DNA from: an uncultured bacterium
GTDB taxonomy: Bacteria; Verrucomicrobiota; Kiritimatiellia; CAIKKV01; CAITUY01
Assembly: GCA_903908715.1 (NCBI GenBank)
Contig: CAIVSY010000053.1
Location: 1,943-65,942, forward strand
Direction: 5' to 3'
DNA length: 64,000 bases
Position 1 is the first letter of the stretch. The number at the start of each line of letters is the position of its first letter. The notes beneath the pieces are model-generated. The model had not been told where the DNA came from and did no database searches. It worked only from the letters and a program-made list of their open reading frames with translations. The translations under genes and the position numbers were made by a program. Positions 925 to 41,553 of the stretch are shown here, piece after piece.

Positions 925-2463
925 CTACACCTTACCCGACTCATTGATCAAATGCACAATTGTATCTGCCATTCTGCGCCAGGAATACTTTCCCGCATAC
1001 CGCTCCGCCATGGCCTGCCGGTCCACGCTCATTTCCAGCACTTCCTTCAAGGCTGCGGTCAAGCCGGCAACATCCTCCCTCCGGCATAGCCGCGCCGCAG
1101 GCTCATCCTGGAGCATTTCGCGGCAGGCGCCCACATCGGTTGCGACAACCGGCAACCCCGAGGCCAGCGCCTCCGCCACCACGTTCGGCATCCCCTCGCT
1201 CCGGCTCGTCAGACATAACACATCCGCCCGATTCATCCACAATGCCACTTCCGCATGCGGCCGACTGCCCAGGAAACGGACCTTGTCGGCAATGCCCAGT
1301 TCCCGCGCCTGGCGCTCAAGTTGCCTGCGCATGGGGCCGGAACCGATGATGACAAGGAGAAGTGAAGCGTGACGAGTGATGCGTACTGATTGAGCGGACT
1401 TAGCAGGAACGAGGCAGTTCAAAACACCCTCACCCTGGCCCTCTCCCGTAAAGGGAGAGGGAATTCCGGATCGTTGCGATACCCCACCGGCGTCATCTTC
1501 CGGTGAAGACACAAGGGGAGTCTTTGGCGCTTCCTCTTCCCTCTGTAGAGCAGCGAAGGCCCTCAACATCACATCCGGCCCCTTGACCGGGACAAGGTTG
1601 GCAATGAACAAAATGCACTGAGCCTTGCCCACAATTGGACTCCCGACTCCTGACTCCTTCCCACTGTCCCCCGGCTCCCGGCTCCGATACCGGAATAACC
1701 CGCCATCCACTCCATTGGGTACAACCTTGATCTTTGCAGGAGGAACGCCCGCGGCCACAAGACGGTCAGCCAGACCCTGGGCGACACAAACGACGCCATT
1801 CACCTCGGCACAGGCATCAAGAATCATCCGCTTGCGCAACCTGGCTTTAAGGTGAAAAGTGTCAGAACCGAGGACCATCAACCAGAGTTGCGCTCCCGAG
1901 CCACGCAAAGCCCTCGCCACAGCGACGCCGTCAGGGTAAAGCCAGGAGGCGAGAAAAGAGACATCGGACATCAGACCACAGACTTCAGACTTGGGAAAAC
2001 GAACGGGGCCCCGTGGTACAGACGAAGCATCCATGTCTACTAGCCCCTTCGCGCCTTCGCGTGAGATCCCTTCCTTCGAGGTCTCCTGTCCGATGTCCGT
2101 GGTCTGTCGTCTCCCAGCCCGCACCTGACTCCTCACTGCCCGGCAATAGAACCACCAGTTGATCGATCGGCCGATCAGGGGGAGGTAGAAGACCGGCAGG
2201 TACAGGGTATTTCCCCTGCTCTCTGCTTGCTGTTTTCCGCTTTCCTGTTCCCTGCAATCCATCCCCTGCATCGGCGCCTTCCACTTCCGGATGGCCGGCC
2301 AGCGCCAGATCCGCCATTCGGGCACAAGGCAGATATTTTGGATTCTGGATTCTGGATTCTGGATTCCAATCACCATGGCCATCTCCCTGAACAACTGCGC
2401 ATTGAACATACCGCGGGTCGGTTCGTCGGGACGTGGATAAAGGTTGGTAATGGTGAAGATCAT
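925..2463 (-). CDS. GT4 glycosyltransferase (TuaC-like) with several repeat-derived in-frame inserts
   Basis: Motifs ITNLYP, VVPNGVD, ANLVPVKG, SRSEGMPNVVAEALASGLPVVATDVG. Start moved to MIFTITNL. Confidence 0.9.
   Translation of the reverse strand: MIFTITNLYPRPDEPTRGMFNAQLFREMAMVIGIQNPESRIQNICLVPEWRIWRWPAIRKWKAPMQGMDCREQESGKQQAESRGNTLYLPVFYLPLIGRSINWWFYCRAVRSQVRAGRRQTTDIGQETSKEGISREGAKGLVDMDASSVPRGPVRFPKSEVCGLMSDVSFLASWLYPDGVAVARALRGSGAQLWLMVLGSDTFHLKARLRKRMILDACAEVNGVVCVAQGLADRLVAAGVPPAKIKVVPNGVDGGLFRYRSREPGDSGKESGVGSPIVGKAQCILFIANLVPVKGPDVMLRAFAALQREEEAPKTPLVSSPEDDAGGVSQRSGIPSPFTGEGQGEGVLNCLVPAKSAQSVRITRHASLLLVIIGSGPMRRQLERQARELGIADKVRFLGSRPHAEVALWMNRADVLCLTSRSEGMPNVVAEALASGLPVVATDVGACREMLQDEPAARLCRREDVAGLTAALKEVLEMSVDRQAMAERYAGKYSWRRMADTIVHLINESGKV
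1365..1550 (-). mobile_element. Hairpin/MITE-like element (CCCTCTCCC-GGGAGAGGG..GGGTGAGGG) inserted in-frame in the GT4 gene
   Basis: Reverse complement aligns by eye with the intergenic sequence at 58770-58940; translates as PSPFTGEGQGEG. Confidence 0.7.
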
Positions 2464-2476
2464 TGCAGGCGCACCG

Positions 2477-3739
2477 TCAATCCCCAAATTGGATCATACC
2501 CGAACAACACTTATACAGGTTCTCATAACCCGCCAGCGTTGCTTCCATCGAATAGCATTCGCGCACTCTGTGACGTGCGAAGTCCGCCCGAACCTTCATC
2601 CCTGCCCGGTCCTGCAGGAGAGCGGATAAAGCGCCCGGCCACTGGTTCTCATCCTGTGGCAGGATCACACCGCACCGGCCACCATCCACCACCCTGCCGC
2701 TTTCCCCAACGTCTGTCACCGCCACTGGAATACCCGAAGCCATTGCCTCCAGGAGACTGATCGGCAGCCCCTCACTCCGGGAGGGTAGCACAAAGAGATC
2801 CATTTCGGCATAGCTTGGCCTCGGATCCGGCTGAAATCCTGCGAAGGTCACATCTGCCGACATGCGAAGCGCATGAGCCTGTTGCTCCAGTGTTGCCCGT
2901 TCCGGCCCGTCGCCGACCATCAGCAATCTTGGCGGAACCCTGCCACCTGCGATTTCCAGTCGCCGGAACTCGCGAAAAGCAGCCAGCAACCTGTCATATC
3001 CCTTGATCTTCACCAAGCGGCCGACACTCCCTATACAGGGACGTAGCGACTCGCTGCACGCAGTCCCCCGGTGCAACCCCGACTCCGGCAGCATGCCACT
3101 GCCGCCATGATCGTCAAGGCCCATCCTGCGGGACGTCGACACGCCTTTACCCCCATTCTCCTTTCGCCTATTTTCAAGTCCGAGGAACCTCTCCCACGGT
3201 ATGCCATTCGCGATGACCAGGAGACTTTGCCTGGGAATGCGGTGCCGCACGGAAAGCTCTTCCGCAACACTCTCCGAAACCGCCACGGTCCGGCGGGTCA
3301 ACCGCCACAGCAGCGCTGTTCGGAACCTGTTGGCCAACCCCTTGAAATGCGGGTTCGTCCCATGTTCCGTGTGAACATGGCAAACACCTGTGCCCATAGT
3401 GGCAATGGCCCCATACTGCCAAGCGGCGGCATTATGCGAATGCAGCACAGTCACTCGAAGTTCCCGGAGAAGGCGGCGGAGCCGTAACACGGCCGGGATG
3501 TCGAATGGTTTTCGCAACCGGCAGGCCTGCAGGCACCACAGAGACTGGCGGGACTGGAGGGCTCCATTGGGTGGGAATTCGTTGACCTCGGCTGCAAGGG
3601 CTCCATTTTCATCCAGACAAACTATCGAGGTAGAAAACGGATTCCTCCTATTGCGATCGTTCGTCCAGTCAACCACGAGGCGCTCCAACCCCCCGGGCGC
3701 CAAGGACAGAACAAGATGGCAAACCTTAGGAACTGTCAT
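2477..3739 (-). CDS. GT4 glycosyltransferase
   Basis: GGLERLV, LHSHN, HTEHG, IANGI, VGRLVKIKG, SRSEGLPISLLEAMASG. Confidence 0.92.
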   Translation of the reverse strand: MTVPKVCHLVLSLAPGGLERLVVDWTNDRNRRNPFSTSIVCLDENGALAAEVNEFPPNGALQSRQSLWCLQACRLRKPFDIPAVLRLRRLLRELRVTVLHSHNAAAWQYGAIATMGTGVCHVHTEHGTNPHFKGLANRFRTALLWRLTRRTVAVSESVAEELSVRHRIPRQSLLVIANGIPWERFLGLENRRKENGGKGVSTSRRMGLDDHGGSGMLPESGLHRGTACSESLRPCIGSVGRLVKIKGYDRLLAAFREFRRLEIAGGRVPPRLLMVGDGPERATLEQQAHALRMSADVTFAGFQPDPRPSYAEMDLFVLPSRSEGLPISLLEAMASGIPVAVTDVGESGRVVDGGRCGVILPQDENQWPGALSALLQDRAGMKVRADFARHRVRECYSMEATLAGYENLYKCCSGMIQFGD

Positions 3740-6063: not shown

Positions 6064-9000
6064 CTACTCCCCTGCGCCTTCGAGCCAGTCAACGACTACG
6101 GGCTTGTTCACCGCCTCATCCATCAGCACCCGCATGGCATCCATCATCGCCTTGGTTTCGGCAATGCTGTTCAGCAGTTTCGCCACCGTCTGCGGATCCG
6201 TCAGCGATCCAGCCTGCAACTCATCCGCGGGCTGTCCGAGCGGCTGCAAGCCACGGGCCTTGGCCATCTCGTCAATCTTGCTCATGGCATCACGGATGGA
6301 CTTCACCAGGTCCTCCGTCGTCATGGTCGAGGCAACGCCACGCATCTGCTCTGCTGCAGCCCCCAGGGCCTGCCGTATCACCGCCAGGTCCTCCAGCGCC
6401 TGATTCAGCTGACCCGCCCCGATCCGTTTCTTGACTTCACCGATCGCCGTCGCCGCATTCTGCGCCTCGGTACGCGCCGAGGTAGCCTTCTGCAAGGTCT
6501 GCTTTGCCGTCCCGCCGACCCCGGTCAGGCCCTGCTCGATCGTCGTCAATTGGCCGAACACGGTATCGGCGCCCGCCGGATCCGTCACATACCCGAGCCT
6601 TTCCTCGATGCTCGAGAGCATATTGGAACTCATTTCCGCCGCATCCATGATCGCCAGTTGCAGGTTCGTGCTGGTTGAACCCACCGAGCCCATCGCAGCC
6701 GTCAGGGCCGCCAGGCTGTTGCTCAATGTTGCAGTGGAATCCATCAAAGTCGCCATGTCGGCTGACAAACCTTCGACCTGGGTGGCCACATTCGTCAAGG
6801 CCATGATCTCCCCGATCACGCCTGACAACTGCTCAACCTGCGTGCCAAGATTGGTCAACCCGCCAAGTTGGCCCAGGGTTGTGGCCAATCCATCCATCCT
6901 CTCATTGAAGTTTGTCAGCGGCACCAGAGTGCCCACCACATCCGCCACCTGCTGGATTTGGACTCCAAGATTTGTAACCACTCCAAGACCCGCGACGGCA
7001 TCGACCAGCCCGTCCACCTGGGCACCGATATTGGTCAGTGAGCCAAGCTGGCTGATCGAAGCAACCACATCATTCATGTCATTGGTCATATTGCCCAATT
7101 GTGAAACGATAGCCGAGATATCCGACAGCTGGGCCGGCAAGTTGGTCAGGCCAGCCAGTTGGTTGACCGAGCTTGCAAGGCTTGCCATCTGACCGGAAAG
7201 GTTGGTGACTGCAATCACTTGAGTCAACGCGTTGGAAACGCCTGCGAGTTGATCGGTCACATTGGTCAATGCACTCAGTTGGCCGACGGCATTGGTCAGA
7301 TAGTCCACGCGACTGCCCAGGTTGGTCAGGCTCGCAACCTGGCCGATCGCGTTGGTCATTACCGCCACCTGATCGCTAAGGTTCGTGATTCCCGCCAGTT
7401 TGCCCACCAGATTCGTCACATCCGCCATTTGCGAGGGAAGGTTGGTCAGCCCTGCCACTTGGCCGCTGATGTTCGTCAAGCCGCCAAGCTGTCCGATCGT
7501 GTTGGTCAGATAATCAATGCGGGCACCCAGGTTTGTCAGGCCGGAAATCTGCCCGATGGAGTTCGTGATGATGGCCACCTGGCCGCTGATGTTGGTCAGG
7601 CCGCTAAGCTGTCCGACTGTGTTGGTCAGATAATCAATGCGGGCACCCAGGTTTGTCAGGCCGGACACCTGCCCGATGGCATTCGTCATGACCGCCACCT
7701 GTTCCGTCAGATTGGTCAGGCCCATGAGGTCTGTGACAACATTGGTCAACCCTGCCATTTGCGACGGCAGGTTGGTCAATCCGGAAAGCTGTCCCATCAC
7801 ATTGGAGAGGCTGCCCAACTGCACCGGCATATTGGTCAGGGACGCCAGCATTCCCGGGACATTGGTCAGCGAACCCACCTGGGCGGACAGGTTGGTCAAT
7901 CCCTGCATCGACACCAGGGCATTGGTCACAAAATTGAGCTGTGCTCCCACATTCGTCAAGCCCGCGATCTGGGCGACCGAGTTCGTCATGGCCGAAACAG
8001 CGGAATTGATATTGGTCAAGGCGGCAATCTGGTTAATCACATTCGTGACATAACTCATTTGCGACGACACCGTGTTGATCTGGTTCGTGATTCCCGACAG
8101 CCGGGCCATACTGTTCGTAAGTGCAGCCATCTGCGGGGTCAGGTTGGTCAACACCCCCATCTGTCCCACGACATTGGTCACATAGGCAAGCTGACCGCTC
8201 ATATTCGTCAAGACCGTGATTTGCCCCACCGCATTGGTCAGGGTGGAAACCACGGGTGAAATGTTGGTCAGCACCACAACCTGGTCGATTACATTCGTCA
8301 TATAGTTCATTTGTGACGACATCGTGTTCAACTGGTTAGTGATGCTGGAAAGCCGGGCCATGCTGTTCGTCAGCGCGGCCATCTGCGGGGTCAGGTTGGT
8401 CAACACCCCCATCTGTCCCACGACATTGGTCACATAGTTGAGCTGCGAGCTCATGTTCGTCAGCACCGTGACCTGGGCGACGGCGGTGGTCATAGCGGCA
8501 ACCGCCGGATTGATGTTGGTCAGCACCACAATCTGGTTGATCACGTTCGTCATGTAGTTCATCTGTGACGACATTGTGTTAATGGAGTTCGTAATGGCGG
8601 ACAGCCGCGCAACCGAACTGGTAACAGCCGCCATCTGCGGGGTCAGGTTCGTAAGGGCTCCGAGGTTGTCGATTTGGGTGGCCATGTTCGTCAGCGCAAT
8701 GATCTGGCTCACAGCGCTCGTCATTGCGGCGACCGAGCCGGAAAGGTTTGTGAGTCCTGCCACCTGGCCGATGTTGTTGGTCAGATACGCGAGCTGTCCG
8801 GGCATATTGGACACCGTCAGGTAGATATCATCCACGTCAGCCATAAGAGTGGAAAGGTTGGTGACCAGCCCGCTGACATTCCGATCCGTATTGGAAGCCA
8901 CAAGGACAAGGTTCGACATCGAGCGTTCTACTCCGGCGATCTGATTGCTGATCCCGCTCATGGTTCCGGCAAGATCATCCAATTCCCACGTGGTCACCTT

Positions 9001-17863: not shown

Positions 17864-18736
17864 CTATCCCTTCCTTAGCACGCACGAGAGGCTGTGGGCC
17901 AACATCCCGGGCCCGATTCCCGGAACACCTGCAGCGATGACGGCCAGACGACGGTTCATGCCGCCCGGCACACCTGCCCGGGCCGCCAGAAAGCGCCGTC
18001 CGCGATTCCCTGCATCGAGGTTCCGGTACCCCGGGCCAAACCCGTAGCGAATCGTCCAGGGCCAGACACCCCGGTCCCAGGACCGACTCCTGAAGCGATC
18101 CAGAAAGCGGGGAACATAATTGACCCACCAACTGCGGGAATGGACTTCCCTGGGCCACAACCGGTTACTGGTCCCCGTCACAACGACGACTCCGCCCGGC
18201 TTCAACACCCGATCCAGTTCCCGTTGCACATCCGCAAGCATGAAACAGGGCACGCACTCCAGGACGCTGGCGCAATTGATCAGGTCAAAGGCATCGTCGG
18301 GGAAGGGGAGTCGCCGGGTATCGGGGACATGGAGAAACTTGAGAGAAGCGGTTGAAAATGGAGGGCGTTGCGCTGTCGGCGCCGCGTCTTGGTATGTCGG
18401 CGGCAACGGCGTGCCGCCCTCCACCAGGGGAAACCCGTACCGCCGGGCATTCATCAATGAGAGAGCAATCCAGTCTGCAGACACATCCACGGCGGTCACA
18501 TTGGCCCCCAGACAGGCAAACACGATGGCAGAGCCGCCGACATTGCTTCCGAACTCGAGTACATCCTTGCCTGCCGCCTCGATCCCGTAGGCCGCCAGGA
18601 AGGGCGGCAGTTTCCGCCATTGGTAGTCGACATACCCCCCGACCCAGACGCTGGCGGGGTCATAGCCCATGGCTCGGCTTTTTTGCTGAAATAAAGCATC
18701 GTCCTCGGGGGACGTTATGACGGGTATGGGATTCAT
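17864..18736 (-). CDS. Class I SAM-dependent methyltransferase with in-frame REP doublet
   Basis: VLEFGSNVGG, LPFPDDAFDLI, RVLKPGG. Start moved to MNPIPV because the upstream extension is translated REP sequence. Confidence 0.85.
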   Translation of the reverse strand: MNPIPVITSPEDDALFQQKSRAMGYDPASVWVGGYVDYQWRKLPPFLAAYGIEAAGKDVLEFGSNVGGSAIVFACLGANVTAVDVSADWIALSLMNARRYGFPLVEGGTPLPPTYQDAAPTAQRPPFSTASLKFLHVPDTRRLPFPDDAFDLINCASVLECVPCFMLADVQRELDRVLKPGGVVVVTGTSNRLWPREVHSRSWWVNYVPRFLDRFRSRSWDRGVWPWTIRYGFGPGYRNLDAGNRGRRFLAARAGVPGGMNRRLAVIAAGVPGIGPGMLAHSLSCVLRKG

Positions 18737-18770
18737 GTAATGATGCTCCGCTCTATTGGATTTGCAGCAT

Positions 18771-18915
18771 CGGCGCTGCACGCCCTTCACGCTGTGTAGT
18801 AGCGGCTGTCTCAGCCGCGCTCTGCTCCTCAGCGCTGCACGCCCTGCGTCTTGTGTAGTAGCGGCTGTCTCAGCCGCGCTCTGCTTCTCAGCCGCGCTCT
18901 GCTCCTCAGCCGCGT
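18771..18915. repeat. GTAG-type REP array downstream of the RAYT gene
   Basis: GTAGTAGCGGCTGTCTCAGCCGC at 18796 and 18856 (60-bp period), plus 18-bp CTCAGCCGCGCTCTGCTY units. Confidence 0.9.
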
Positions 18916-18948
18916 TCTTCACGTCTCATGCCATGCACATTCGCGTTT

Positions 18949-19599
18949 CTAGACCTCCCCGATTTGCATGATCTCGCCGCGATATGGCCAGGCATCCCAA
19001 TTTGCAACCAAGCCTTTACGTACCGGATTGTCACGCACGTAGCACCATTTCTCCCGGTAGCTCTCATTGTGACGCAGCAGATGATCGAAGAACCCATCCT
19101 GCCAGATGGAGATGGAGGTCGGCTGCGAAGAAAAGGCGCCGCCGGGGACGGCGGCTACTACACGCCCTGCGTCTTGTGTAGTAGCGGCTGTCTCAGCCGC
19201 GCTCTGCTGCCCCGGCGCTGCACGCCCTGTGTCCTGTGTAGTAGCGGCTGTCTCAGCCGCGCTCTGCTTCTCAGCCGCGCTCTGCTCCTCAGCCGCGCTC
19301 CTCTGCTGGGCATACGCCTTTCCCATCACGCGCTTGAGTCCGCGAACCCACGGCCCCAACTTCGTGTCGCCGCCGATCCGCACGAATAGGTGGACATGAT
19401 CGGGCATGATCACGTATTGCCCCACCCCTACCCCATGCTCCAGTGCCGCCTCCGCGTACGAGCGAAAGGCATCATGGAGAATCGGTGTCGCCAGAACAGG
19501 ACGGCGATTCAGTGTGCAAAAGGTAATAAAATAAAGTGGCGGCGTGTAATCCTGAAAAACAAAAGGCAACCGAGGTGGGCGGTGTATAGCGTTGGGCAT
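18949..19599 (-). mobile_element. rayT: REP-associated tyrosine transposase (RAYT, Y1 HUH family) with its own REPs inserted in-frame
   Basis: YFITFCT, YVIMPDHVHL (HUH), WQDGFFDH, YVRDNPV; flanked by GTAG REPs on both sides. Confidence 0.92.
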
Positions 19600-19620
19600 G
19601 GGTAGAAATCCTAGTCCTGT

Positions 19621-19783
19621 GTAGTAGCGGCTGTCTCAGCCGCGCTCTGCTCTCAGCCGCGCTCTGCTCTCAGCCGCGCTCTGCTCTCAGCCGCGCTCTG
19701 CTCTCAGCCGCGCTCTGCTCTCAGCCGCGCTCTGCTCTCAGCCGCGCTCTGCTCTTCGGCGCGGCCGGGACGGCCGCTACTAC
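19621..19783. repeat. REPIN-like element: inverted GTAG REPs enclosing 7 perfect copies of a 17-mer
   Basis: GTAGTAGCGG ... (CTCAGCCGCGCTCTGCT)x7 at 19635-19753 ... CCGCTACTAC. Confidence 0.92.
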
Positions 19784-21306
19784 ACGGGCTGTGCGCTTGG
19801 GCGTTTACCTGCAATATACCGCGCCAGGATCCGCCACCACTTGCGCGAGACCTTTCGGCCAGAGGCCCAATAATTGGCATAGGCCCGCACCCACAATTTC
19901 ACGGCCGCCAGCCGGTCGCCCCGCTCAAACGCCATCCAACTCCCCTGCTGGCACTGGATCGACACCGCCGCCGGCTTGTATTCAGGCAGGGCCGACAACG
20001 CGCCCCCGGGCGCGAAGGCCTTGTCCAGCACCCGCAATACCTGCGGCAGGAACGTGCGCTCATCCCGGCTCAGGCTTCCCGGCGTTTCCCGGTAGTACAC
20101 CAACGGGGCATTGATGTGCCCGATATTGGGAGGAAGGAAGACTTTAGACTTTAGACTATAGACATTAGACGCAGCAGATGAGGGGACTTTAGACTTTAGA
20201 CCATAGACTTTAGACCTGAGCCCCGCACTTCCCGTATTCTCGTCTACGGTCTCTCCTCCCTCTCCCTGGTCTAAGGTCTGTAGTCTGTAGTCTGTAGTCT
20301 GTAGTCTGATATCTGCCGTCTGCCCTCCCTCCTTACCCCTTTCCCCTTGCCCCTTACCCTTCTGCCCTCCCCCTAAGGCTGCGACCCGCATCCACAGATC
20401 ATAGTCCTCCGGCCCGCGGAAGGACTCATCGAACCCGCCAGCGGCCAGCAGCGCCTCCCGCCGTACGAGAACCGTGGATGTCGCCACGCAGTTATGCCAG
20501 GCAAACTCTTCCAGCGGAATGAAGATGACTTTAGACTTTAGACTGTAGACATTAGACCGTGCCGTGTTTGGTGGTCCATTGTCTCCAGTCTCCAGTCCGT
20601 AGTCCGTCGTCCGTGGTCCGTGGCCCGTTGTTGGTTGTTGGTTGTTGGTTGTTCGTTGTCCGTCGTCCGTCGTCCGTAGTCCATCGTCTAAAGTCCATGG
20701 TCTATGGTCTATTGCCTGCAGTCCAGGGTCTATTGTCTGTTCTCCCACCCCCTCCGCAGTCCACTCCGCCCGGGGTCGGCAGTCCGTGGTCCGCAGTCCG
20801 TAGTCTCCCCCCCCCGCCACCCATCCACCACACCAGAGAACGACATCGGGCCACTGGGCGGCGCAGGCCATCTGCCGTTCCAACTTGTCCGGCAGCCAGG
20901 CGTCATCGGCATCGAGGAAGGCGATCCATTCGCCGGTCGCTTCCCGTATGCCCGCGTTGCGGGCCGCGGCGGGGCCGGCGTTGCGGGGAAGAACGTGAAG
21001 AGTGACGGGTGACGGGTGACTGGCAATCCATTTCCTCACGACCGTGACCGTATCATCCGAGGAACAGTCGTCGACCACAATCACCTCGTAACGGGATTCG
21101 GGATTCGAGATTCGAGATTCGGGATTCGACAGTTGCAAGGATCCGGCATCCCGCAACCCGCATCCTGTATCCGGATTGAGGTCTGAGGTCTGTAGTCTGT
21201 AGTCTGTGGAGTCTGCTTTCGCCCAGTACGTCTGGGCGAAAGCAGACTCCAGCGCCTCCACGATCGTGGATGAGCTGTTATAGGCGGGGATGATGATGGA
21301 GATCAT
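19780..21306 (-). CDS. GT2 glycosyltransferase expanded by three large heptamer-repeat inserts
   Basis: ISIIIPAYN, VIVVDDCSSD, AARNAG, IAFLDADD, GGFDESF..EDYDLW; low-complexity inserts lie between these motifs. Confidence 0.88.
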   Translation of the reverse strand: MISIIIPAYNSSSTIVEALESAFAQTYWAKADSTDYRLQTSDLNPDTGCGLRDAGSLQLSNPESRISNPESRYEVIVVDDCSSDDTVTVVRKWIASHPSPVTLHVLPRNAGPAAARNAGIREATGEWIAFLDADDAWLPDKLERQMACAAQWPDVVLWCGGWVAGGGDYGLRTTDCRPRAEWTAEGVGEQTIDPGLQAIDHRPWTLDDGLRTTDDGQRTTNNQQPTTGHGPRTTDYGLETGDNGPPNTARSNVYSLKSKVIFIPLEEFAWHNCVATSTVLVRREALLAAGGFDESFRGPEDYDLWMRVAALGGGQKGKGQGERGKEGGQTADIRLQTTDYRLQTLDQGEGGETVDENTGSAGLRSKVYGLKSKVPSSAASNVYSLKSKVFLPPNIGHINAPLVYYRETPGSLSRDERTFLPQVLRVLDKAFAPGGALSALPEYKPAAVSIQCQQGSWMAFERGDRLAAVKLWVRAYANYWASGRKVSRKWWRILARYIAGKRPSAQPV

Positions 21307-21387
21307 GGGAGCGCCTTCGGCGCGGTTATCGGTTATCCGTTGTTGGTTATTGGGAGGCGTACAGACGGAGGGTCTTCAGTCTACAGT

Positions 21388-21624
21388 CTATGGTCTAATG
21401 TCTACAGTCTCGCCCCCCTCCCGCCCCGCCTCTTCCACCAGCATGATAGGGATTCCGTCGCGGATGGGAAAGCGGAGGCCGCAGGCCGGATTCTGGCACA
21501 CGATCCACCCGGTCACCGAGCCTCCGGCTTCCGGCGGCAACGGCGTGCCGCCCTCCATTCGCACATCGCCCTTGCATTCCGGGCACGCCAGTATCTCCAG
21601 TAATTCCTGCCGAATCTCGCCCAT
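21388..21624 (-). CDS. Trm112-like (YcaR/UPF0434) protein with REP insert
   Basis: LLEILACPECK...C...FPIRDGIPIML. Confidence 0.85.
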   Translation of the reverse strand: MGEIRQELLEILACPECKGDVRMEGGTPLPPEAGGSVTGWIVCQNPACGLRFPIRDGIPIMLVEEAGREGGETVDIRP

Positions 21625-21857: not shown

Positions 21858-22043
21858 CTACAGTCTCCCCCCCTCCCGCCCCGCCTCTTCCACCAACATG
21901 ATCGGGATACCTTCCCGGATCGGGAACTGCAACCCGCATTCCTGACTCTCACACCGGATATAATTTCCTTCCTGTCGGACTGGACTCTTGCAAATCGGAC
22001 AAGCAAGGATATTCATTAAGTCCTTTGATACGGCGCAAGTCAT
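21858..22043 (-). CDS. Trm112-like protein, second copy
   Basis: LMNILACPICK...C...FPIREGIPIML. Confidence 0.85.
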   Translation of the reverse strand: MTCAVSKDLMNILACPICKSPVRQEGNYIRCESQECGLQFPIREGIPIMLVEEAGREGGRL

Positions 22044-37387: not shown

Positions 37388-37510
37388 AGACGTTAGACCT
37401 TGGACGTTGGACTCATGACAAGGGGAAGACTTTGGACTATAGACTTTAGACGTTGGACTCATGGGGAAGAGGAGACTGTAGACCTTGGACGTTGGACTGG
37501 GTTGTGGACT
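37388..37510. repeat. GACNNNN heptamer array (downstream arm of four-helix-bundle element 1)
   Basis: GACGTTA GACCTTG GACGTTG ... GACTTTG GACTATA GACTTTA ... GACTGTA GACCTTG GACGTTG. Confidence 0.85.
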
Positions 37511-37544
37511 TGTCATGTCTGTTGTCTGGCCATAAATTTCTCTA

Positions 37545-37973
37545 TCATCTGAGCACCATACCGCAGGAGAGCGCAAGGAAACTTGTGACACGGGCAAGCG
37601 TTCGACTGACAACACCGGCCTCCTTCTCGACTGACCGGATGAGGCCCGCCAGTATGCGCAGGGTCTCTTCAGATGCTTCCGTTAATGTTCGTTGCTGAAT
37701 TATGTCCAAGTATCCGAGTCGTCCGGCCAAATGAATGAAGTACCGCGTCTCCGATAGCGAACCTCGAGCAATGTGCAGGAAGTGAAGGTAATCCTTGAGG
37801 CTTTCCCGGGAAGATCCTTCGACAATATTTGCGGGAACGGAATAGGCAGCACGACGAAGTTGACTTGTCAGGGAATAGATTTCGTCCTTCGGAAATGATC
37901 GCGTCGCCTCGTATACCCCCACCGTTAGATCGTCCGCTTTTTTCCACGCTACTATTTTCGTATAATCACGCAT
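37545..37973 (-). CDS. Four helix bundle protein (23S IVS-protein/Avd-like), copy 1
   Basis: AWKKA, FPKDEIYSLTSQLRRAAYSVPANIVEG, FLHIARGSLSE. Confidence 0.93.
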   Translation of the reverse strand: MRDYTKIVAWKKADDLTVGVYEATRSFPKDEIYSLTSQLRRAAYSVPANIVEGSSRESLKDYLHFLHIARGSLSETRYFIHLAGRLGYLDIIQQRTLTEASEETLRILAGLIRSVEKEAGVVSRTLARVTSFLALSCGMVLR

Positions 37974-37984
37974 CTTGTTTCTTT

Positions 37985-38052
37985 GGTCTGACGACTTTGT
38001 CCATGGTCTAACGCCTATGGTCTATGGTCTAACGTCCATGGTCTATAGTCTA
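37985..38052. repeat. GTCYANN heptamer array (upstream arm of element 1), overlapping the 3' end of the acetyltransferase gene
   Basis: GTCCATG GTCTAAC GCCTATG GTCTATG GTCTAAC GTCCATG GTCTATA GTC. Confidence 0.85.
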
Positions 38053-38668
38053 ATCCCCCCTCCCCCTCCCACCCCACATCCTCCACATACCCCTTCGAAC
38101 CTTCATAAGATACCACTTTGGCCGGGATGCCTACAACGACCGCGTTGTCCGGCACATCACTCGTCACCACGGCGTTGGCTCCGATCGCCACGTTGTTCCC
38201 CACCGTCACCGCCCCGATCACCTTGGCCCCGGGGCCGATATATACATTGTCGCCGATCACCGGATAGCCCTTACGCCGCCCCCGGTTCGCTTGCCCGATC
38301 GTAACCCCCGGCGAAAGGTTGCAATTCTTGCCGATCCGGCTGTGACCGTTGACGATGATGTTTCCAAAATGCCCGATGTAGAAGCCTGGTCCGATCTGCG
38401 TCCCGTACGGGATCAGGATGCCGTACTTGAACATGCAATGCCGCAGCATGAGGCGGGCGAGGAGGTGGAGAGGAAACAGGAAGAGATTGGAGATTGGAGA
38501 TTGGGTTTTCGAATTGGGATGTGTATAGGCGCAGGTACGCATCCAGAAAATGTAGGCCCAAGCCTCGCCACAGAACAGTTCGCGGAGGAAGGCCCGGACG
38601 CCTATCCGCCCACCGGTGGCGCGGTAGAGGTCGGAGCGGACCAGGGATTTGTATTCAGTGAAGGTCAT
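38015..38668 (-). CDS. Serine O-acetyltransferase-like hexapeptide acetyltransferase (WcaB/EpsC type)
   Basis: IGPGFYIGHFG, GVTIG, IGDNVYIGPGAKV, IGANAVV, VVGIPAK. Confidence 0.92.
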   Translation of the reverse strand: MTFTEYKSLVRSDLYRATGGRIGVRAFLRELFCGEAWAYIFWMRTCAYTHPNSKTQSPISNLFLFPLHLLARLMLRHCMFKYGILIPYGTQIGPGFYIGHFGNIIVNGHSRIGKNCNLSPGVTIGQANRGRRKGYPVIGDNVYIGPGAKVIGAVTVGNNVAIGANAVVTSDVPDNAVVVGIPAKVVSYEGSKGYVEDVGWEGEGGLDYRPWTLDHRP

Positions 38669-38687: not shown

Positions 38688-38900
38688 GACTACGGACTAC
38701 GGAAGGAGGAGACTATGGACTATAGACTTTAGACGTTAGACTGAAGACCAAATGCGAAGACTTTGAACAGAAGCAAACGAATGATTCATGCTGGAGGGCG
38801 CCGCGCTGTCGGCGCCGTTCTTCCCACACCGGCGGCAACGGCGTGCCGCCCTCCAGGTGCTCTGGCACCGTTACAGTCTACGGACTATAGTCCAACGTCC
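38688..38900. repeat. Composite intergenic repeat: GAC heptamers, MITE end and TGGAG REP doublet
   Basis: Heptamers at 38688-38750; GAAGACCAAATGCGAAGACTTTGAACAGAAG; inverted REPs at 38792-38855. Confidence 0.8.
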
Positions 38901-39976
38901 CCACTTACCATTCTCACGACTTCCCACCACGCACCGATCGCCTCCCGATACTTCGGGGGCCACAAGGCGGCCTTGATCAGATCCCGTTTGAAGGCCCTCC
39001 TGACCCGCCTCCATTCCGCCTCTTCCCCCTTCCCGTCCGTCGTCCGTAGTCCGTAGTCCGTAGTCCTATAAACACGCCCCAGCAACTCAATCCGCCGCCA
39101 CCGGTCCCGGCCATGCACATTCGCCGCCGGCCGGCGCATGAGGCTCACGTCCTCGAGCGACAGGCCTGAGAACCCCGCCGCGCGAAGGTTTTCCAGCGCG
39201 ATTTGGTCCGCGCAGGCCTGCTGCTCCTGATACCTGGCGAACGTGATGGCGTTGGCATGGTTGCGAATCAACACCAGCGGCTCGGCCAGATTCGCCGCCC
39301 GCCCCCGGCGCATCAACGCCGACCACAGTCCGTAGTCCTGGGCATAGCGCAGCGATTCATCATATTCCAACCGGTCCCTGGAGGGCGCCGCGTCCGCCCT
39401 GAGCAGCGTCGTAGGGCTGTCGGCGCCGCTCTTCGAACCATCGGCGGCAACGGCGTGCCGCCCTCCATCAATACCCTGCCGCCACATCACGCTGGAATGT
39501 CGGAACCCATTCTGCAGCAACAGGTTCCACCGCAGTGCTCGATCGCCCAGCAGCGGGATCACCGGTTGTGGGTCAACCCGCCCAGCCTCGTCAATCCATT
39601 GCCAGCCGCACCCGAGCAACACGACATCCGGATGTGCCTCAAGGAACTCCACCTGGCGGGCCAGCCGTTCGGGACGTGAGACATCGTCGTCATCCTGGCG
39701 GGCGATATAACGCCCCGTGCAACGGGCGAGGCCGATGTTCAGGGACTTGGTGAGCCCCACGTTGGCGGGGTTGGTGATCCGCCTGATCCGGGGATCTGAG
39801 TAGCTGTCAAGGATCGCCGCCGTCCGATCCGTTGACCCGTCATCCACGATGACGAACTCGAAATCCGTGAAGGTCTGGGCCAGGACCCCGTCCACGGCCT
39901 CGCGCAGGTACCGTTCGCCGTTGTAAACGGCCATGAGGACGCTGACGAGGGGGGGGGATGAGGGGGAGGGGTTCAT
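38885..39976 (-). CDS. GT2 glycosyltransferase with REP and heptamer inserts
   Basis: VSVLMAVYNGE, IVDDGSTD, IARQDDDD, AQDYGLW. Confidence 0.9.
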   Translation of the reverse strand: MNPSPSSPPLVSVLMAVYNGERYLREAVDGVLAQTFTDFEFVIVDDGSTDRTAAILDSYSDPRIRRITNPANVGLTKSLNIGLARCTGRYIARQDDDDVSRPERLARQVEFLEAHPDVVLLGCGWQWIDEAGRVDPQPVIPLLGDRALRWNLLLQNGFRHSSVMWRQGIDGGRHAVAADGSKSGADSPTTLLRADAAPSRDRLEYDESLRYAQDYGLWSALMRRGRAANLAEPLVLIRNHANAITFARYQEQQACADQIALENLRAAGFSGLSLEDVSLMRRPAANVHGRDRWRRIELLGRVYRTTDYGLRTTDGKGEEAEWRRVRRAFKRDLIKAALWPPKYREAIGAWWEVVRMVSGDVGL

Positions 39977-40087: not shown

Positions 40088-40244
40088 GAACAGAAGGAAA
40101 CAAAGGAAACGAAGTTAGGAGTGATGGCTTCCGCCGAAGGCGGCAACAAAGGCCTCTTTGTTACCTTCGCTGCCTTCTGTTCGAACTCTTCGCATCTGGT
40201 CTTCAGTCTTCAGTCTACAGTCTAATGTCTAATGTCTACAGTCC
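40088..40244. mobile_element. Palindromic MITE-like element, copy 2, followed by a GTC heptamer array
   Basis: Same termini and internal organisation as the 21652 copy; followed by GTCTTCA GTCTTCA GTCTACA GTCTAAT GTCTAAT GTCTACA. Confidence 0.75.
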
Positions 40245-41553
40245 CTTTGCCTCCCCCCATCACCTTGCGATACACCGCCAGTTCCATCTCCACGATCCGG
40301 TCCAGGCTGTAGTGTTCGACCGCGAACTGGCGGGCGTTGCGGCCCAGGCGCTCACGGAGAGCGGGGTCCCCCATCATCCGCACGATCGCCGCCCGGAGGC
40401 TGACCGGGTCCGTACCGCACAGCAGCCCGGTCTCCTCATGCCGGATGACCTCCCGGATCCCGGGCACGTCCGTGCCGATCACAGGCATCCCGCAGGCCAT
40501 CGCCTCGATCAGGGTCTTGGGATGGCCTTCGTACAACGAGGGCAGGACGAAGAACGCATTCTGGCGCAGGATGCCCGCAATCTGCGAATGCGGAACGTTT
40601 CCCAGAAACTGGACATTCACCTGGTGCGCCTGTGCCAAAGTCGCCAATTCATTGTGTAGCGACCCCTCCCCGACCAGGACCAGACGCAGATTCAATCCCT
40701 CCGAGGCAGCAATGAGTGCTGCCAGGTTCTTTTGCTCAGCCAACCGCCCAACGAAACACCCGCTGGCGGCCACGGGCGCCCCCGCAGTGGCCACAGCTTC
40801 GGCAAAAGGCCCCGCGGATGTTCCTGTCGACGTCTTTGCGCCAATCCTGACTTGGCTCGAAGAATCATTACAACCGCTCATCGACAGGGACATATCCCCC
40901 CTGGAGGGCGGCACGCTGTTGCCGCCGTCCCCAAGCGCCGAGAAATCCACGTAATTCGGAATAACGGTAATCTTTTCGCCCTCTATGCCATAGTTCCGGA
41001 TCAGCACCTGCTTCGCATCTTCCGTTGTGACTACGCACTGGCTCGCACAGCGGAATGCCTTCGCCTCCATCCGCCTTGCCTCATTCGCCTCGCGGGAACA
41101 GGCCCCATAAGCCCGCTCCTCGAATTCAGACCACAAGTACCCGCAACGTGCCACCAGAGGTTTGCGCCACAGCCGAGCCGCACATACGGCAACATCTGAT
41201 CCCTTCATCTGGTTCGTCTTCAGAATATCCGCGTGTCGCAATACGCGCCAGTGGATGAAGCACGCCATTCTATAATAGAGATCCTCGGGCAAATTCCACG
41301 AATTGCAAACTATTCCTATGCCATGCATCCGAGCTGCGTACTTGAGTTCATTCCTGCCCCCATATGTCAGAAATACAACCTCAACGCCGCGCTTACGAAG
41401 CTCCCTGTATACCGCAATCTCTCTTTCCAGGATTCCTATTGTATCCCAAGCCGCCAAGGACATGCCCTTTGTAAAAATCACAATCACGTTGAGCCGGCTA
41501 TAATTTGTCGTAGCGCTTTGCTGCAATGCCAAGGTTGTTGATTGATTGATCAT
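40222..41553 (-). CDS. GT4 glycosyltransferase with in-frame insert
   Basis: VIPNYVD, FVGRLAEQKN, SLYEGHPKTLIEAMACG. Confidence 0.9.
   Translation of the reverse strand: MINQSTTLALQQSATTNYSRLNVIVIFTKGMSLAAWDTIGILEREIAVYRELRKRGVEVVFLTYGGRNELKYAARMHGIGIVCNSWNLPEDLYYRMACFIHWRVLRHADILKTNQMKGSDVAVCAARLWRKPLVARCGYLWSEFEERAYGACSREANEARRMEAKAFRCASQCVVTTEDAKQVLIRNYGIEGEKITVIPNYVDFSALGDGGNSVPPSRGDMSLSMSGCNDSSSQVRIGAKTSTGTSAGPFAEAVATAGAPVAASGCFVGRLAEQKNLAALIAASEGLNLRLVLVGEGSLHNELATLAQAHQVNVQFLGNVPHSQIAGILRQNAFFVLPSLYEGHPKTLIEAMACGMPVIGTDVPGIREVIRHEETGLLCGTDPVSLRAAIVRMMGDPALRERLGRNARQFAVEHYSLDRIVEMELAVYRKVMGGGKGTVDIRH

Follow-up and report, generated by a model that had tools for sequence, protein, structure and literature searches.

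The window analysed here is a 64,000-nt stretch of one contig (G000:C53:1943-65942) in a metagenome-assembled genome of an uncultured Kiritimatiellia bacterium from lake water (GenBank GCA_903908715.1; 3.05 Mb, 118 contigs, 59% G+C). It carries a gene cluster for polysaccharide synthesis in which the gene for a family 2 glycosyltransferase (GT2) is interrupted, in frame, by three blocks of seven-nucleotide repeats. Around this gene lie methyltransferase genes, two Trm112-like genes, other GT2 and GT4 genes and a hexapeptide acyltransferase gene, and the same cluster holds three of the genome's eight PF05635 genes together with an IS200-like Y1 transposase gene. The GT2 protein matches Pfam PF00535 (Glycos_transf_2) with an E-value of 5.2e-32 (111.5 bits, cut-off 23.3), where the match is broken into two stretches by the first of the repeat blocks. 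Inspection of a 76-sequence alignment that includes the window protein reveals D79, D80, D132, D134 and the motif G298-P-E-D301 to be invariant and D135 to be nearly so; residues invariant in this alignment are by definition kept in the window protein. AlphaFold2 modelling with the same alignment assigns the core a predicted local distance difference test score (pLDDT) above 90, with a predicted template modelling score (pTM) of 0.72, and Foldseek matches the core to the GT-A enzymes TarS, TarP, WrtF and SpsA (E 2e-12 to 2e-10). From sequence and model, the gene probably encodes a working GT-A glycosyltransferase that takes part in polysaccharide synthesis.

Insert borders were set by aligning the window protein with two insert-free homologs, P0014 (319 aa) and P0027 (313 aa), and with inflated forms. 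The segments scored are residues 29-72 (21091-21222, 132 nt), 164-258 (285 nt) and 311-393 (249 nt), which sum to 222 aa and represent an excess of ~178 aa over the homolog median and ~204 aa over the homolog minimum. A preliminary description of this DNA had proposed three heptamer inserts that inflate the protein by roughly 200 aa and leave the frame and all GT2 motifs intact. The alignment bears this out: its borders fall within ~10 nt of the earlier coordinates, the size of the inflation agrees, and both the PF00535 match and the invariant residues are in place.

Tandem Repeats Finder places period-7 arrays in all three insert zones (Table 1). A single tract, GTCTGTA at 4.7 copies, is perfect, and the remaining tracts are 70-93% matched. 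Insert 3 runs from a GGGTAAG-type G-rich leader through a perfect CAGACTA arm of the GAC type (4.7 copies) and a loop to two GTC arms and a C/T-rich tail. Insert 2 has a G-rich leader followed by ~260 nt of GAC-type heptamers that enclose a CAACAAC run, with a short GTC arm that pairs with the final GAC units. Insert 1 is composed of a GAC-type run, CCGGATG-type units and CGAATCC heptamers. Inserts 2 and 3 present G-rich and C/T-rich ends and imperfectly pairing GAC and GTC arms that have no counterpart in insert 1. The preliminary description had also read the two larger inserts as a GAC run followed by a complementary GTC run; the order holds in both, and the self-complementarity is only partial. 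RNA folding of insert 2, which forms a 3' hairpin, beats all 200 shuffles (z -4.84), in contrast to z-scores of -1.51 for insert 3 and +1.47 for insert 1. No target-site duplication is visible in the sequence at the borders of the GT2 inserts.

Table 1. Coordinates (window positions) of the GT2 gene, its inserts and repeat arrays, the complete PF05635 element and neighbouring features.
Feature	Position	Strand	Basis or remark
GT2 (GT-A fold) glycosyltransferase open reading frame (ORF), 508 aa, with conserved C-terminal helical domain	19780..21306	minus	ORF list, Pfam, alignment, AlphaFold2, Foldseek
Insert 1, hot spot S1, residues ~28-72	21091..21225	minus	Alignment with insert-free homologs, repeat scans
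Insert 2, hot spot S2, residues 164-258	20533..20817	minus	Alignment with insert-free homologs, repeat scans
Insert 3, hot spot S3, residues 311-393	20128..20376	minus	Alignment with insert-free homologs, repeat scans
AGACTTT/GACTTTA arrays	20139-20170, 20185-20215, 20527-20557		Tandem Repeats Finder
GTCTGTA arrays	20276-20308 (4.7 copies, 100% matches), 21188-21207		Tandem Repeats Finder
CCTTACC array	20331-20359		Tandem Repeats Finder
GTCCGTT array, 12.6 copies	20595-20682		Tandem Repeats Finder
GGTTGTT run, within the GTCCGTT array	20630-20651		
GTCCGCA array	20775-20805		Tandem Repeats Finder
CGGGATT array	21092-21128		Tandem Repeats Finder
GTGACGG array, 2.7 copies, encoding SHPSPVT at hot spot S1b	21002..21020	minus	Repeat finder and homolog alignment
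Perfect 19-nt palindrome with 5-nt loop	21208-21226 versus 21232-21250		Inverted-repeat scan
G-rich leader and GAC array just 5' of the GT2 start	21371..21432	minus	Doubles as coding sequence for the C-terminal tail (GGETVDIRP) of the Trm112-like gene 21388-21624
Complete four-helix-bundle element	37405..38062	minus	PF05635 ORF 37545-37973, Pfam E 1.6e-33
Element 5' arm: G-rich leader and GAC heptamers	about 37998-38062	minus	
Element 3' arm: GTC heptamers and C/T-rich tail	about 37405-37530	minus	
IS200-like Y1 transposase gene, similar to those of repetitive extragenic palindrome (REP)-associated tyrosine transposases (RAYT-like)	18949..19599	minus	Pfam PF01797, E 2.1e-8, profile positions 7-89 only
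17-bp tandem repeat, 7.2 copies (19634-19755), inside 30-nt inverted repeats	19616..19788		Between the transposase gene and the GT2 stop codon

The inserts are compatible with uninterrupted translation in the frame of the gene. Each insert length is a multiple of 3. The three sense frames, the gene's own given first, contain 0/0/0 stops in insert 1, 0/4/2 in insert 2 and 0/5/7 in insert 3, with 1-7 stops in the antisense frames. When each insert was shuffled by mononucleotide (5000 trials), frame 0 stayed open in 17%, 4.9% and 1.0% of cases for inserts 1, 2 and 3, respectively. The GTC arms of inserts 2 and 3 make up three arrays, two of them in insert 3, and each is open in only one of six frames, namely that of the gene. 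A pure GTCTAAA array would meet a TAA within 21 nt whatever the frame, and the GTC arms of inserts 2 and 3 escape such stops because their units vary. The simpler notion that these arrays are inherently stop-free was rejected, since 48 of 138 GAC-strand units and 53 of 138 complementary-strand units give a stop in some frame when repeated as a pure array. In the AlphaFold2 model the inserts lack secondary structure, at pLDDT values of 51-56 (insert 1), 31-62 (insert 2) and 34-48 (insert 3), and their mean hydropathy of -1.03 contrasts with -0.01 for the core. The frame and the model together argue strongly that the GT2 inserts are translated, and suggest that they are harmless to the enzyme.

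Comparison with homologs, which span about 300-694 aa, identifies the insert sites as hot spots of length variation. Loops S1, S1b, S2 and S3 exceed their median length by more than 15 aa in 30, 21, 23 and 27 of the 76 homologs, respectively. Two of the core segments never do so and a third does so once in 76, with lengths of 49-56, 43-43 and 83-127 aa. Insert content at the shared loops is unrelated from homolog to homolog, and frequently follows one grammar: a TTDYRLQTTD-like run, which is translated GAC-type heptamers, then a variable middle, then an SNVYSLKSNV-like run, which is translated GTC-type heptamers. Period-7 arrays were found within the ORF of same-family orthologs (nine in L082, five in L088, one in L087 and two each in L084 and L085) and none in the more distant loci L083, L001 and L006. 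At S1b, a short S-R-F-T-L-H-like segment precedes a core strand even in homologs termed 'insert-free'. By its sequence this segment resembles translated TCACSYC-type heptamers, and a repeat-derived segment may here have joined the fold.

Turnover at these sites is rapid. Large insert indels separate P0004 from P0006, two proteins with closely aligning core segments; one of these indels measures exactly 7 aa (21 nt, three units) and lies inside a GAC array, and others are nested blocks of different small repeats. From this close pair it follows that the inserts evolve far faster than the core. The locus that encodes P0004 (L082, G014:C12:31611-35501, in a same-family genome) also has a truncated PF05635 gene directly 5' of the GT2 ortholog, flanked by GAGGTGA/TCACCTC arrays, and the 3' arm of this gene is read as a 71-aa N-terminal extension of P0004. 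No frameshifted GT2 allele was present among the orthologs read, and a single-protein query found no close alleles in Joint Genome Institute (JGI) metagenome contigs. P0001, a partial sequence 99% identical to the window protein, possibly derives from the window's own sample and was excluded from the independent evidence. A scan of genome contigs with very general GT2 motifs, among whose listed matches distant GT2 sequences predominate, served only a few named loci.

The arrangement seen in the GT2 inserts recurs around genes of the PF05635 four-helix-bundle family (annotated '23S rRNA intervening-sequence protein'). The complete element in the window and the GT2 inserts share the composite order of G-rich leader, GAC heptamers, loop, GTC heptamers and C/T-rich tail. 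The element's arms pair in both the minimum-free-energy and the centroid fold, at a whole-element z-score of only -0.97. Seven of the eight PF05635 copies in the genome have inverted heptamer-like arms, with units that differ between copies. The copy without such arms (G000:C94:1772-2089) lies in a CRISPR-cas locus; elsewhere on that contig (C94:8775-8812), a G-rich leader and GAC array stand just 5' of a Cas3-like ORF. The ORF list and Pfam reveal no PF05635 ORF inside the GT2 inserts, the assembly contains no 23S rRNA gene, and positions 17000-42500 gave no match to Rfam families, introns or ribozymes at E up to 0.1.

Members of the PF05635 family were found in 38 of 40 relatives (39 of 41 with this genome), and flanks were analysed at the best locus in each of 29 relatives, 27 of which were usable. 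Loci with short flanks were dropped (L113 and L122 from the relatives, L151 from a class- and phylum-level set), and the window's own copy (L104) was kept out of both sets. At least 16 of 21 positions followed period 7 on both flanks at 13 of the 27 relative loci, in contrast to 0.5% of random 260-nt windows, and at 20 of 27 none of 200 shuffles matched the downstream flank's complement as well as the upstream array did. In the set drawn from class and phylum level, the same two measures hold for 9 and 16 of 28 loci, respectively. Strong period 7 marks 28 of 54 flanks in the relatives and 20 of 56 in the broader set, where any other period from 4 to 12 reaches at most 4, and control windows ~1.0-1.3 kb away show it in 2 of 45 and 0 of 52 cases. 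We infer that the GT2 inserts are related by descent to the PF05635 elements.

Heptamer arrays are likewise dispersed in the genome at large. A genome scan returned 75 period-7 arrays versus 10-16 each for periods 5, 8, 10 and 11, which places the period-7 signal above chance; 25 of the 75 lie in the window's contig, which makes up 2.2% of the assembly, and 11 in the GT2 gene. With a GAC array defined as four or more GAC at 7-nt spacing, the genome holds 33 GAC/GTC arrays, compared with a median of 2 over all 64 trinucleotides. The unit consensus is GAC-Y-D-Y-R, where position 7 is a purine in 96% of 138 units. A run of at least four G occurs within 40 nt 5' of 16 of the 33 arrays against a background of 14%; these include the 5' arm of the PF05635 element and insert 2, and insert 3 likewise opens with a G-rich leader. 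GAC arrays are present in 24 of 24 same-family relatives and also in families f2-f4, and none was found in the seven f5 genomes and one f6 genome searched. For this pattern search the reversed pattern is an unclean control, since CAG-spaced heptamer families are also abundant.

In-frame GAC/GTC arrays extend to genes unrelated to GT2, namely those for ThiL (AIRS domains), a GT4 enzyme (window 925-2487), a Mu-like portal protein and a Mu-like prophage protease. The ThiL insert is confined to one loop, which is short in 5 of 12 aligned homologs and filled by unrelated inserts in several others; ThiL homologs with Verrucomicrobia and Kiritimatiellia source names are 56-61% identical. In locus L125 (G000:C12:42000-47744) an in-frame GAC array is present in each of the portal gene (PF06074) and the protease gene (PF10123), so these repeats enter prophage genes too.

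The start of insert 1 bears on how such sequence might grow. Here a perfect palindrome spans 21208..21250, such that the core codons for (L)ESAFAQ reappear inverted as the insert's first codons (WAKADS). The ortholog in G014 (L082) retains a 10-nt palindrome at the same site, with two base pairs altered on both sides; the changes replace F by L and A by V in the core and are silent opposite. In this comparison, which involves two sequences only, the retained pairing suggests that the hairpin either served as a template for growth or was kept by selection.

The explanation that we favour, and regard as likely, is that the GT2 inserts are gene-less, partly decayed and translated members of a lineage-wide family of hairpin repeats, tolerated in loops. 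The family would be laid out as a G-rich leader, tandem GAC-Y-D-Y-R heptamers, a short loop, complementary GTC heptamers and a C/T-rich tail, and its complete form would enclose a PF05635 gene. DNA of this family would occupy three surface loops of GT2, the fourth being a hot spot in relatives, and the ribosome would translate straight across. With no factor common to 7 and 3, a set of three heptamers yields one 7-residue peptide (for instance DYRLQTT or SKVYSLK), so the predicted products are hydrophilic disordered loops rich in Gly, Thr, Asp, Arg and Gln that would leave the catalytic core untouched. Selection would act as a filter, with survivors limited to insertions whose length is a multiple of three, which bring no stop in the host frame and which fall in a permissive loop. 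Fast turnover would follow as units are gained or lost, as other small repeats become nested inside the inserts and as palindromes extend into flanking codons. The mode by which the inserts spread is likewise something that we infer.

Several observations weigh against this explanation. A blastn search of the inserts against the genome returns only array matches of 19-39 nt and no long near-identical copy, so transposition of a defined element is not demonstrated, and local slippage could generate much of the insert sequence. Insert 1 lacks a GTC arm and any excess of folding, and its opening with an inverted copy of its own flank indicates a local origin; the fold of insert 3 is not significantly better than that of shuffled sequences. 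As many as 21 of the 33 GAC/GTC arrays reside in the one glycosyltransferase-rich contig, which a contingency locus would also predict, and arrays outside GT2 were judged 'genic' by an open frame and long flanks, which is partly circular. No RNA run containing the stretch was found among the sequencing runs searched. Finally, mismatches in PF05635 arms comprise 81 G-U versus 109 A-C, which is no sense-strand G-U excess (p 0.05, in the opposite direction). This wobble test took in six of the eight PF05635 copies of the genome, omitting the armless C94 copy and that on C33, whose flank ends at the contig end, and 42 of the 61 loci entered reached the arm-alignment score. Given the absence of G-U excess, we do not claim an RNA-level stem on the sense strand; the hairpin may matter as DNA or as RNA.

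Of the interpretations offered in the preliminary description, some gain from these results and others lose. The likeness of the inserts to the arms of a four-helix-bundle element is upheld, as they share the architecture of the complete element at 37405-38062 and inverted heptamer arms are general around PF05635 genes of relatives. Descent from four-helix-bundle 'element 1' in particular is not shown, in view of the short array matches elsewhere in the genome. Tolerance as disordered loops agrees with the stop-free frame, the low insert pLDDT, the variable loops shared by orthologs and the parallel in ThiL. Among the findings named as counting against the proposal was conservation of the inserts as protein in orthologs; the same loops are used there with unrelated content. 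Another, an assembly artefact, is taken up below.

Growth of low-complexity sequence within the gene itself, through slippage, fold-back synthesis and a shared mutational bias, would dispense with both PF05635 descent and mobility. The lack of any long shared copy in the genome, the perfect inverted copy of its own flank with which insert 1 starts and the dependence of array units on location all fit such growth. It does not anticipate that unrelated genes, intergenic DNA and the surroundings of a PF05635 gene all show the one composite order, that PF05635 arms remain complementary though their units differ between copies, or that close orthologs differ by nested blocks resembling other dispersed repeats, and for these reasons we consider it unlikely, if deserving of some weight. 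Glycosyltransferase genes are often phase-variable in other bacteria, and slippage by one or two heptamers could switch this glycosyltransferase and its neighbours so as to vary the surface polysaccharide, an account with which translation of the inserts in the ON state would agree. In its favour, 7 is not divisible by 3, a single tract is free of mismatches (20276-20308), the window's glycosyltransferase-rich contig holds the counts of GAC/GTC and period-7 arrays given above, and strains of Coxiella are reported to differ in the heptamer number of their 23S intervening sequence (PMC4990558). Against a contingency locus, most tracts are degenerate, which would damp slippage, and the arrays lie in mid-gene rather than near the start; the same arrays inhabit ThiL and prophage genes, and no frameshifted allele occurs in the orthologs read. 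Contigs from three sequencing runs also show no indel or joint, which is weak evidence because contigs hide minor variants. We judge a contingency locus to be improbable, slightly more so than purely local growth.

The preliminary description had raised removal or bypass at the RNA level as a further option, whereby RNase III-type excision, an intron-like process or ribosome hopping would produce a protein without inserts. The 23S intervening sequences that complete elements resemble are reported to be excised by RNase III (PMC4990558), and insert 2 folds better than all of its shuffles. Excision would impose no constraint on length or stops, which disfavours this option given that all three lengths are divisible by 3 and that three GTC arms are open only in the gene's frame; insert 1, moreover, has no structure, and no Rfam, intron or ribozyme match was obtained across the region searched. 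In rRNA intervening sequences, cleavage by RNase III is not known to be followed by ligation. Removal or bypass is thus unsupported, and we regard it as very improbable. We attach equally little credence to an artefact of assembly or a decaying pseudogene, in which repeats would have been mis-joined or the gene disused. The genome is indeed a metagenome assembly of 118 contigs, and short contigs from public runs break inside arrays. Contigs from three runs of one lake-water study nevertheless run across the junctions of core and insert without a single difference, no break interrupts the 508-codon frame, in which every invariant residue is kept, and orthologs elsewhere share the architecture.

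Other small repeats surround the GT2 gene. Copies of an 18-bp repeat, TCTCAGCCGCGCTCTGCT, break up the Y1 transposase gene without loss of frame. The same repeat forms an N-terminal extension of the neighbouring methyltransferase ORF and the 17-bp tandem of 7.2 copies between 30-nt inverted repeats, and its sites in this region include 18773-18918, 19251-19300 and 19634-19755; the 17-mer has all 13 of its exact copies in the window's contig. A second small repeat, with GGCACGCCGTTGCCGCC, stands in frame in ORFs 17864-18922, 21388-21624, 38885-39976 and 40222-41553, and reads GGTPLPP, GGNGVPP/GGNSVPP or GRHAVAA according to frame and strand; its 17-mer occurs in four exact copies, all in the same contig. 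Directly 5' of the GT2 start codon (21307-21324), and of one other gene, CGCGCCGAAGGCGCTCCC follows CAATAAC-type heptamers. Two exact copies of it exist in the genome, the second at G000:C53 ~59500, just 3' of the PF05635 gene C53:59653-59973, and CGCGCCGAAGGCGCTCCC may be an element end that supplies translation start context. In the tandem Trm112-like genes (21388-21624 and 21858-22043, minus strand), tails of the type EEAGREGGE... are encoded by a G-rich leader and GAC array, and the Trm112-like ORF terminates at the array's first TAG. Large tandem repeats of 120 bp (2.1 copies) and 252 bp (2.9 copies, 73% matches) at window 7454-8649 probably represent a repetitive protein-coding gene.

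Among known systems, the closest case is that of the Rickettsia palindromic elements (RPEs), palindromic repeats described in frame in many unrelated genes, metabolic ones included, where they are translated and judged compatible with the fold (PMC10969869). The present inserts are similarly palindromic repeat DNA in frame within unrelated genes, with translation here predicted. Unlike RPEs, which form families of ~150 bp with conserved sequence and peptide, they have no conserved full-length consensus; their arms are variable tandem heptamers, a PF05635 gene lies within the complete form, and shared loops take up several inserts, which nest. The host also differs, being a free-living relative of Verrucomicrobia and Kiritimatiellia rather than a Rickettsia. 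A second comparison is with the 23S intervening sequence of Coxiella, for which tandem GACAGAT heptamers are reported 5' of an S23p ORF, in strain-variable number (PMC4990558). Element 37405-38062 resembles the Coxiella and Leptospira intervening sequences in its inverted arms and PF05635 ORF, and the Coxiella one also in its GAC heptamers. In contrast to those, the present elements occur within and between genes for proteins, the GT2 inserts contain no reading frame of their own, and RNase III excision would not fit an open frame. In a literature search that mostly covered journals outside subscription, a link between PF05635/S23p and heptamers was found only for the Coxiella element.

Heptanucleotide repeats are known as dispersed, over-represented simple repeats of bacteria, including three in Calothrix and GGGNATC, in cyanobacteria (Nostoc among them) and xanthomonads; these are reported as over-represented in non-coding and under-represented in coding DNA and as forming G-quadruplexes (PMC4692102). 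Many of the arrays studied here, unlike those, are in frame and paired in inverted order, inverted pairs not being described for those. As in phase-variable glycosyltransferase loci, repeat units that are not multiples of 3 lie inside a glycosyltransferase gene of a polysaccharide cluster; unlike in such loci, the tracts are mostly degenerate, internal and also present in housekeeping genes, and contigs of three runs contain no length variant. The inserts further share with REP/REPIN-RAYT systems (REPINs being REP-based hairpins) and with MITEs (transposable elements of the miniature inverted-repeat type) the character of small, dispersed, hairpin-forming repeats, and a Y1 transposase gene adjoins GT2. 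The heptamer arrays are nevertheless distinct from the REP-like 17/18-bp repeats, and unlike MITEs they have no terminal consensus, no linked cognate transposase and no identified transposase-bearing parent; only two Y1 transposase genes are present in the genome.

A broader proposal is that PF05635 genes with inverted heptamer arrays constitute one widespread selfish hairpin class whose gene-less arms colonise coding DNA, grow by templated extension and remodel proteins across a bacterial order. Such a class would reach from this phylum to the Coxiella 23S intervening sequence, and the 7-nt period, which would give the same 7-residue peptide in every frame, would ease survival inside genes. 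The 19-nt inverted copy at insert 1, whose pairing an ortholog maintains by two compensatory changes, would be taken as evidence of templated extension. We offer this proposal tentatively, as possible and open to considerable doubt.

If the favoured explanation is correct, and the inserts are translated remnants of a hairpin-repeat family, a whole lineage tolerates and renews repeat-derived disordered loops in its enzymes, a housekeeping kinase included. This would amount to a natural experiment on the load of foreign sequence that a fold can bear and on the birth of new protein segments. For annotation it would counsel caution, in that repeat-encoded segments inflate proteins, break domain matches and seed spurious similarity. 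The PF05635 family, for its part, would gain a genomic signature, complementary heptamer arrays on both sides of the gene, at about half of the loci examined.

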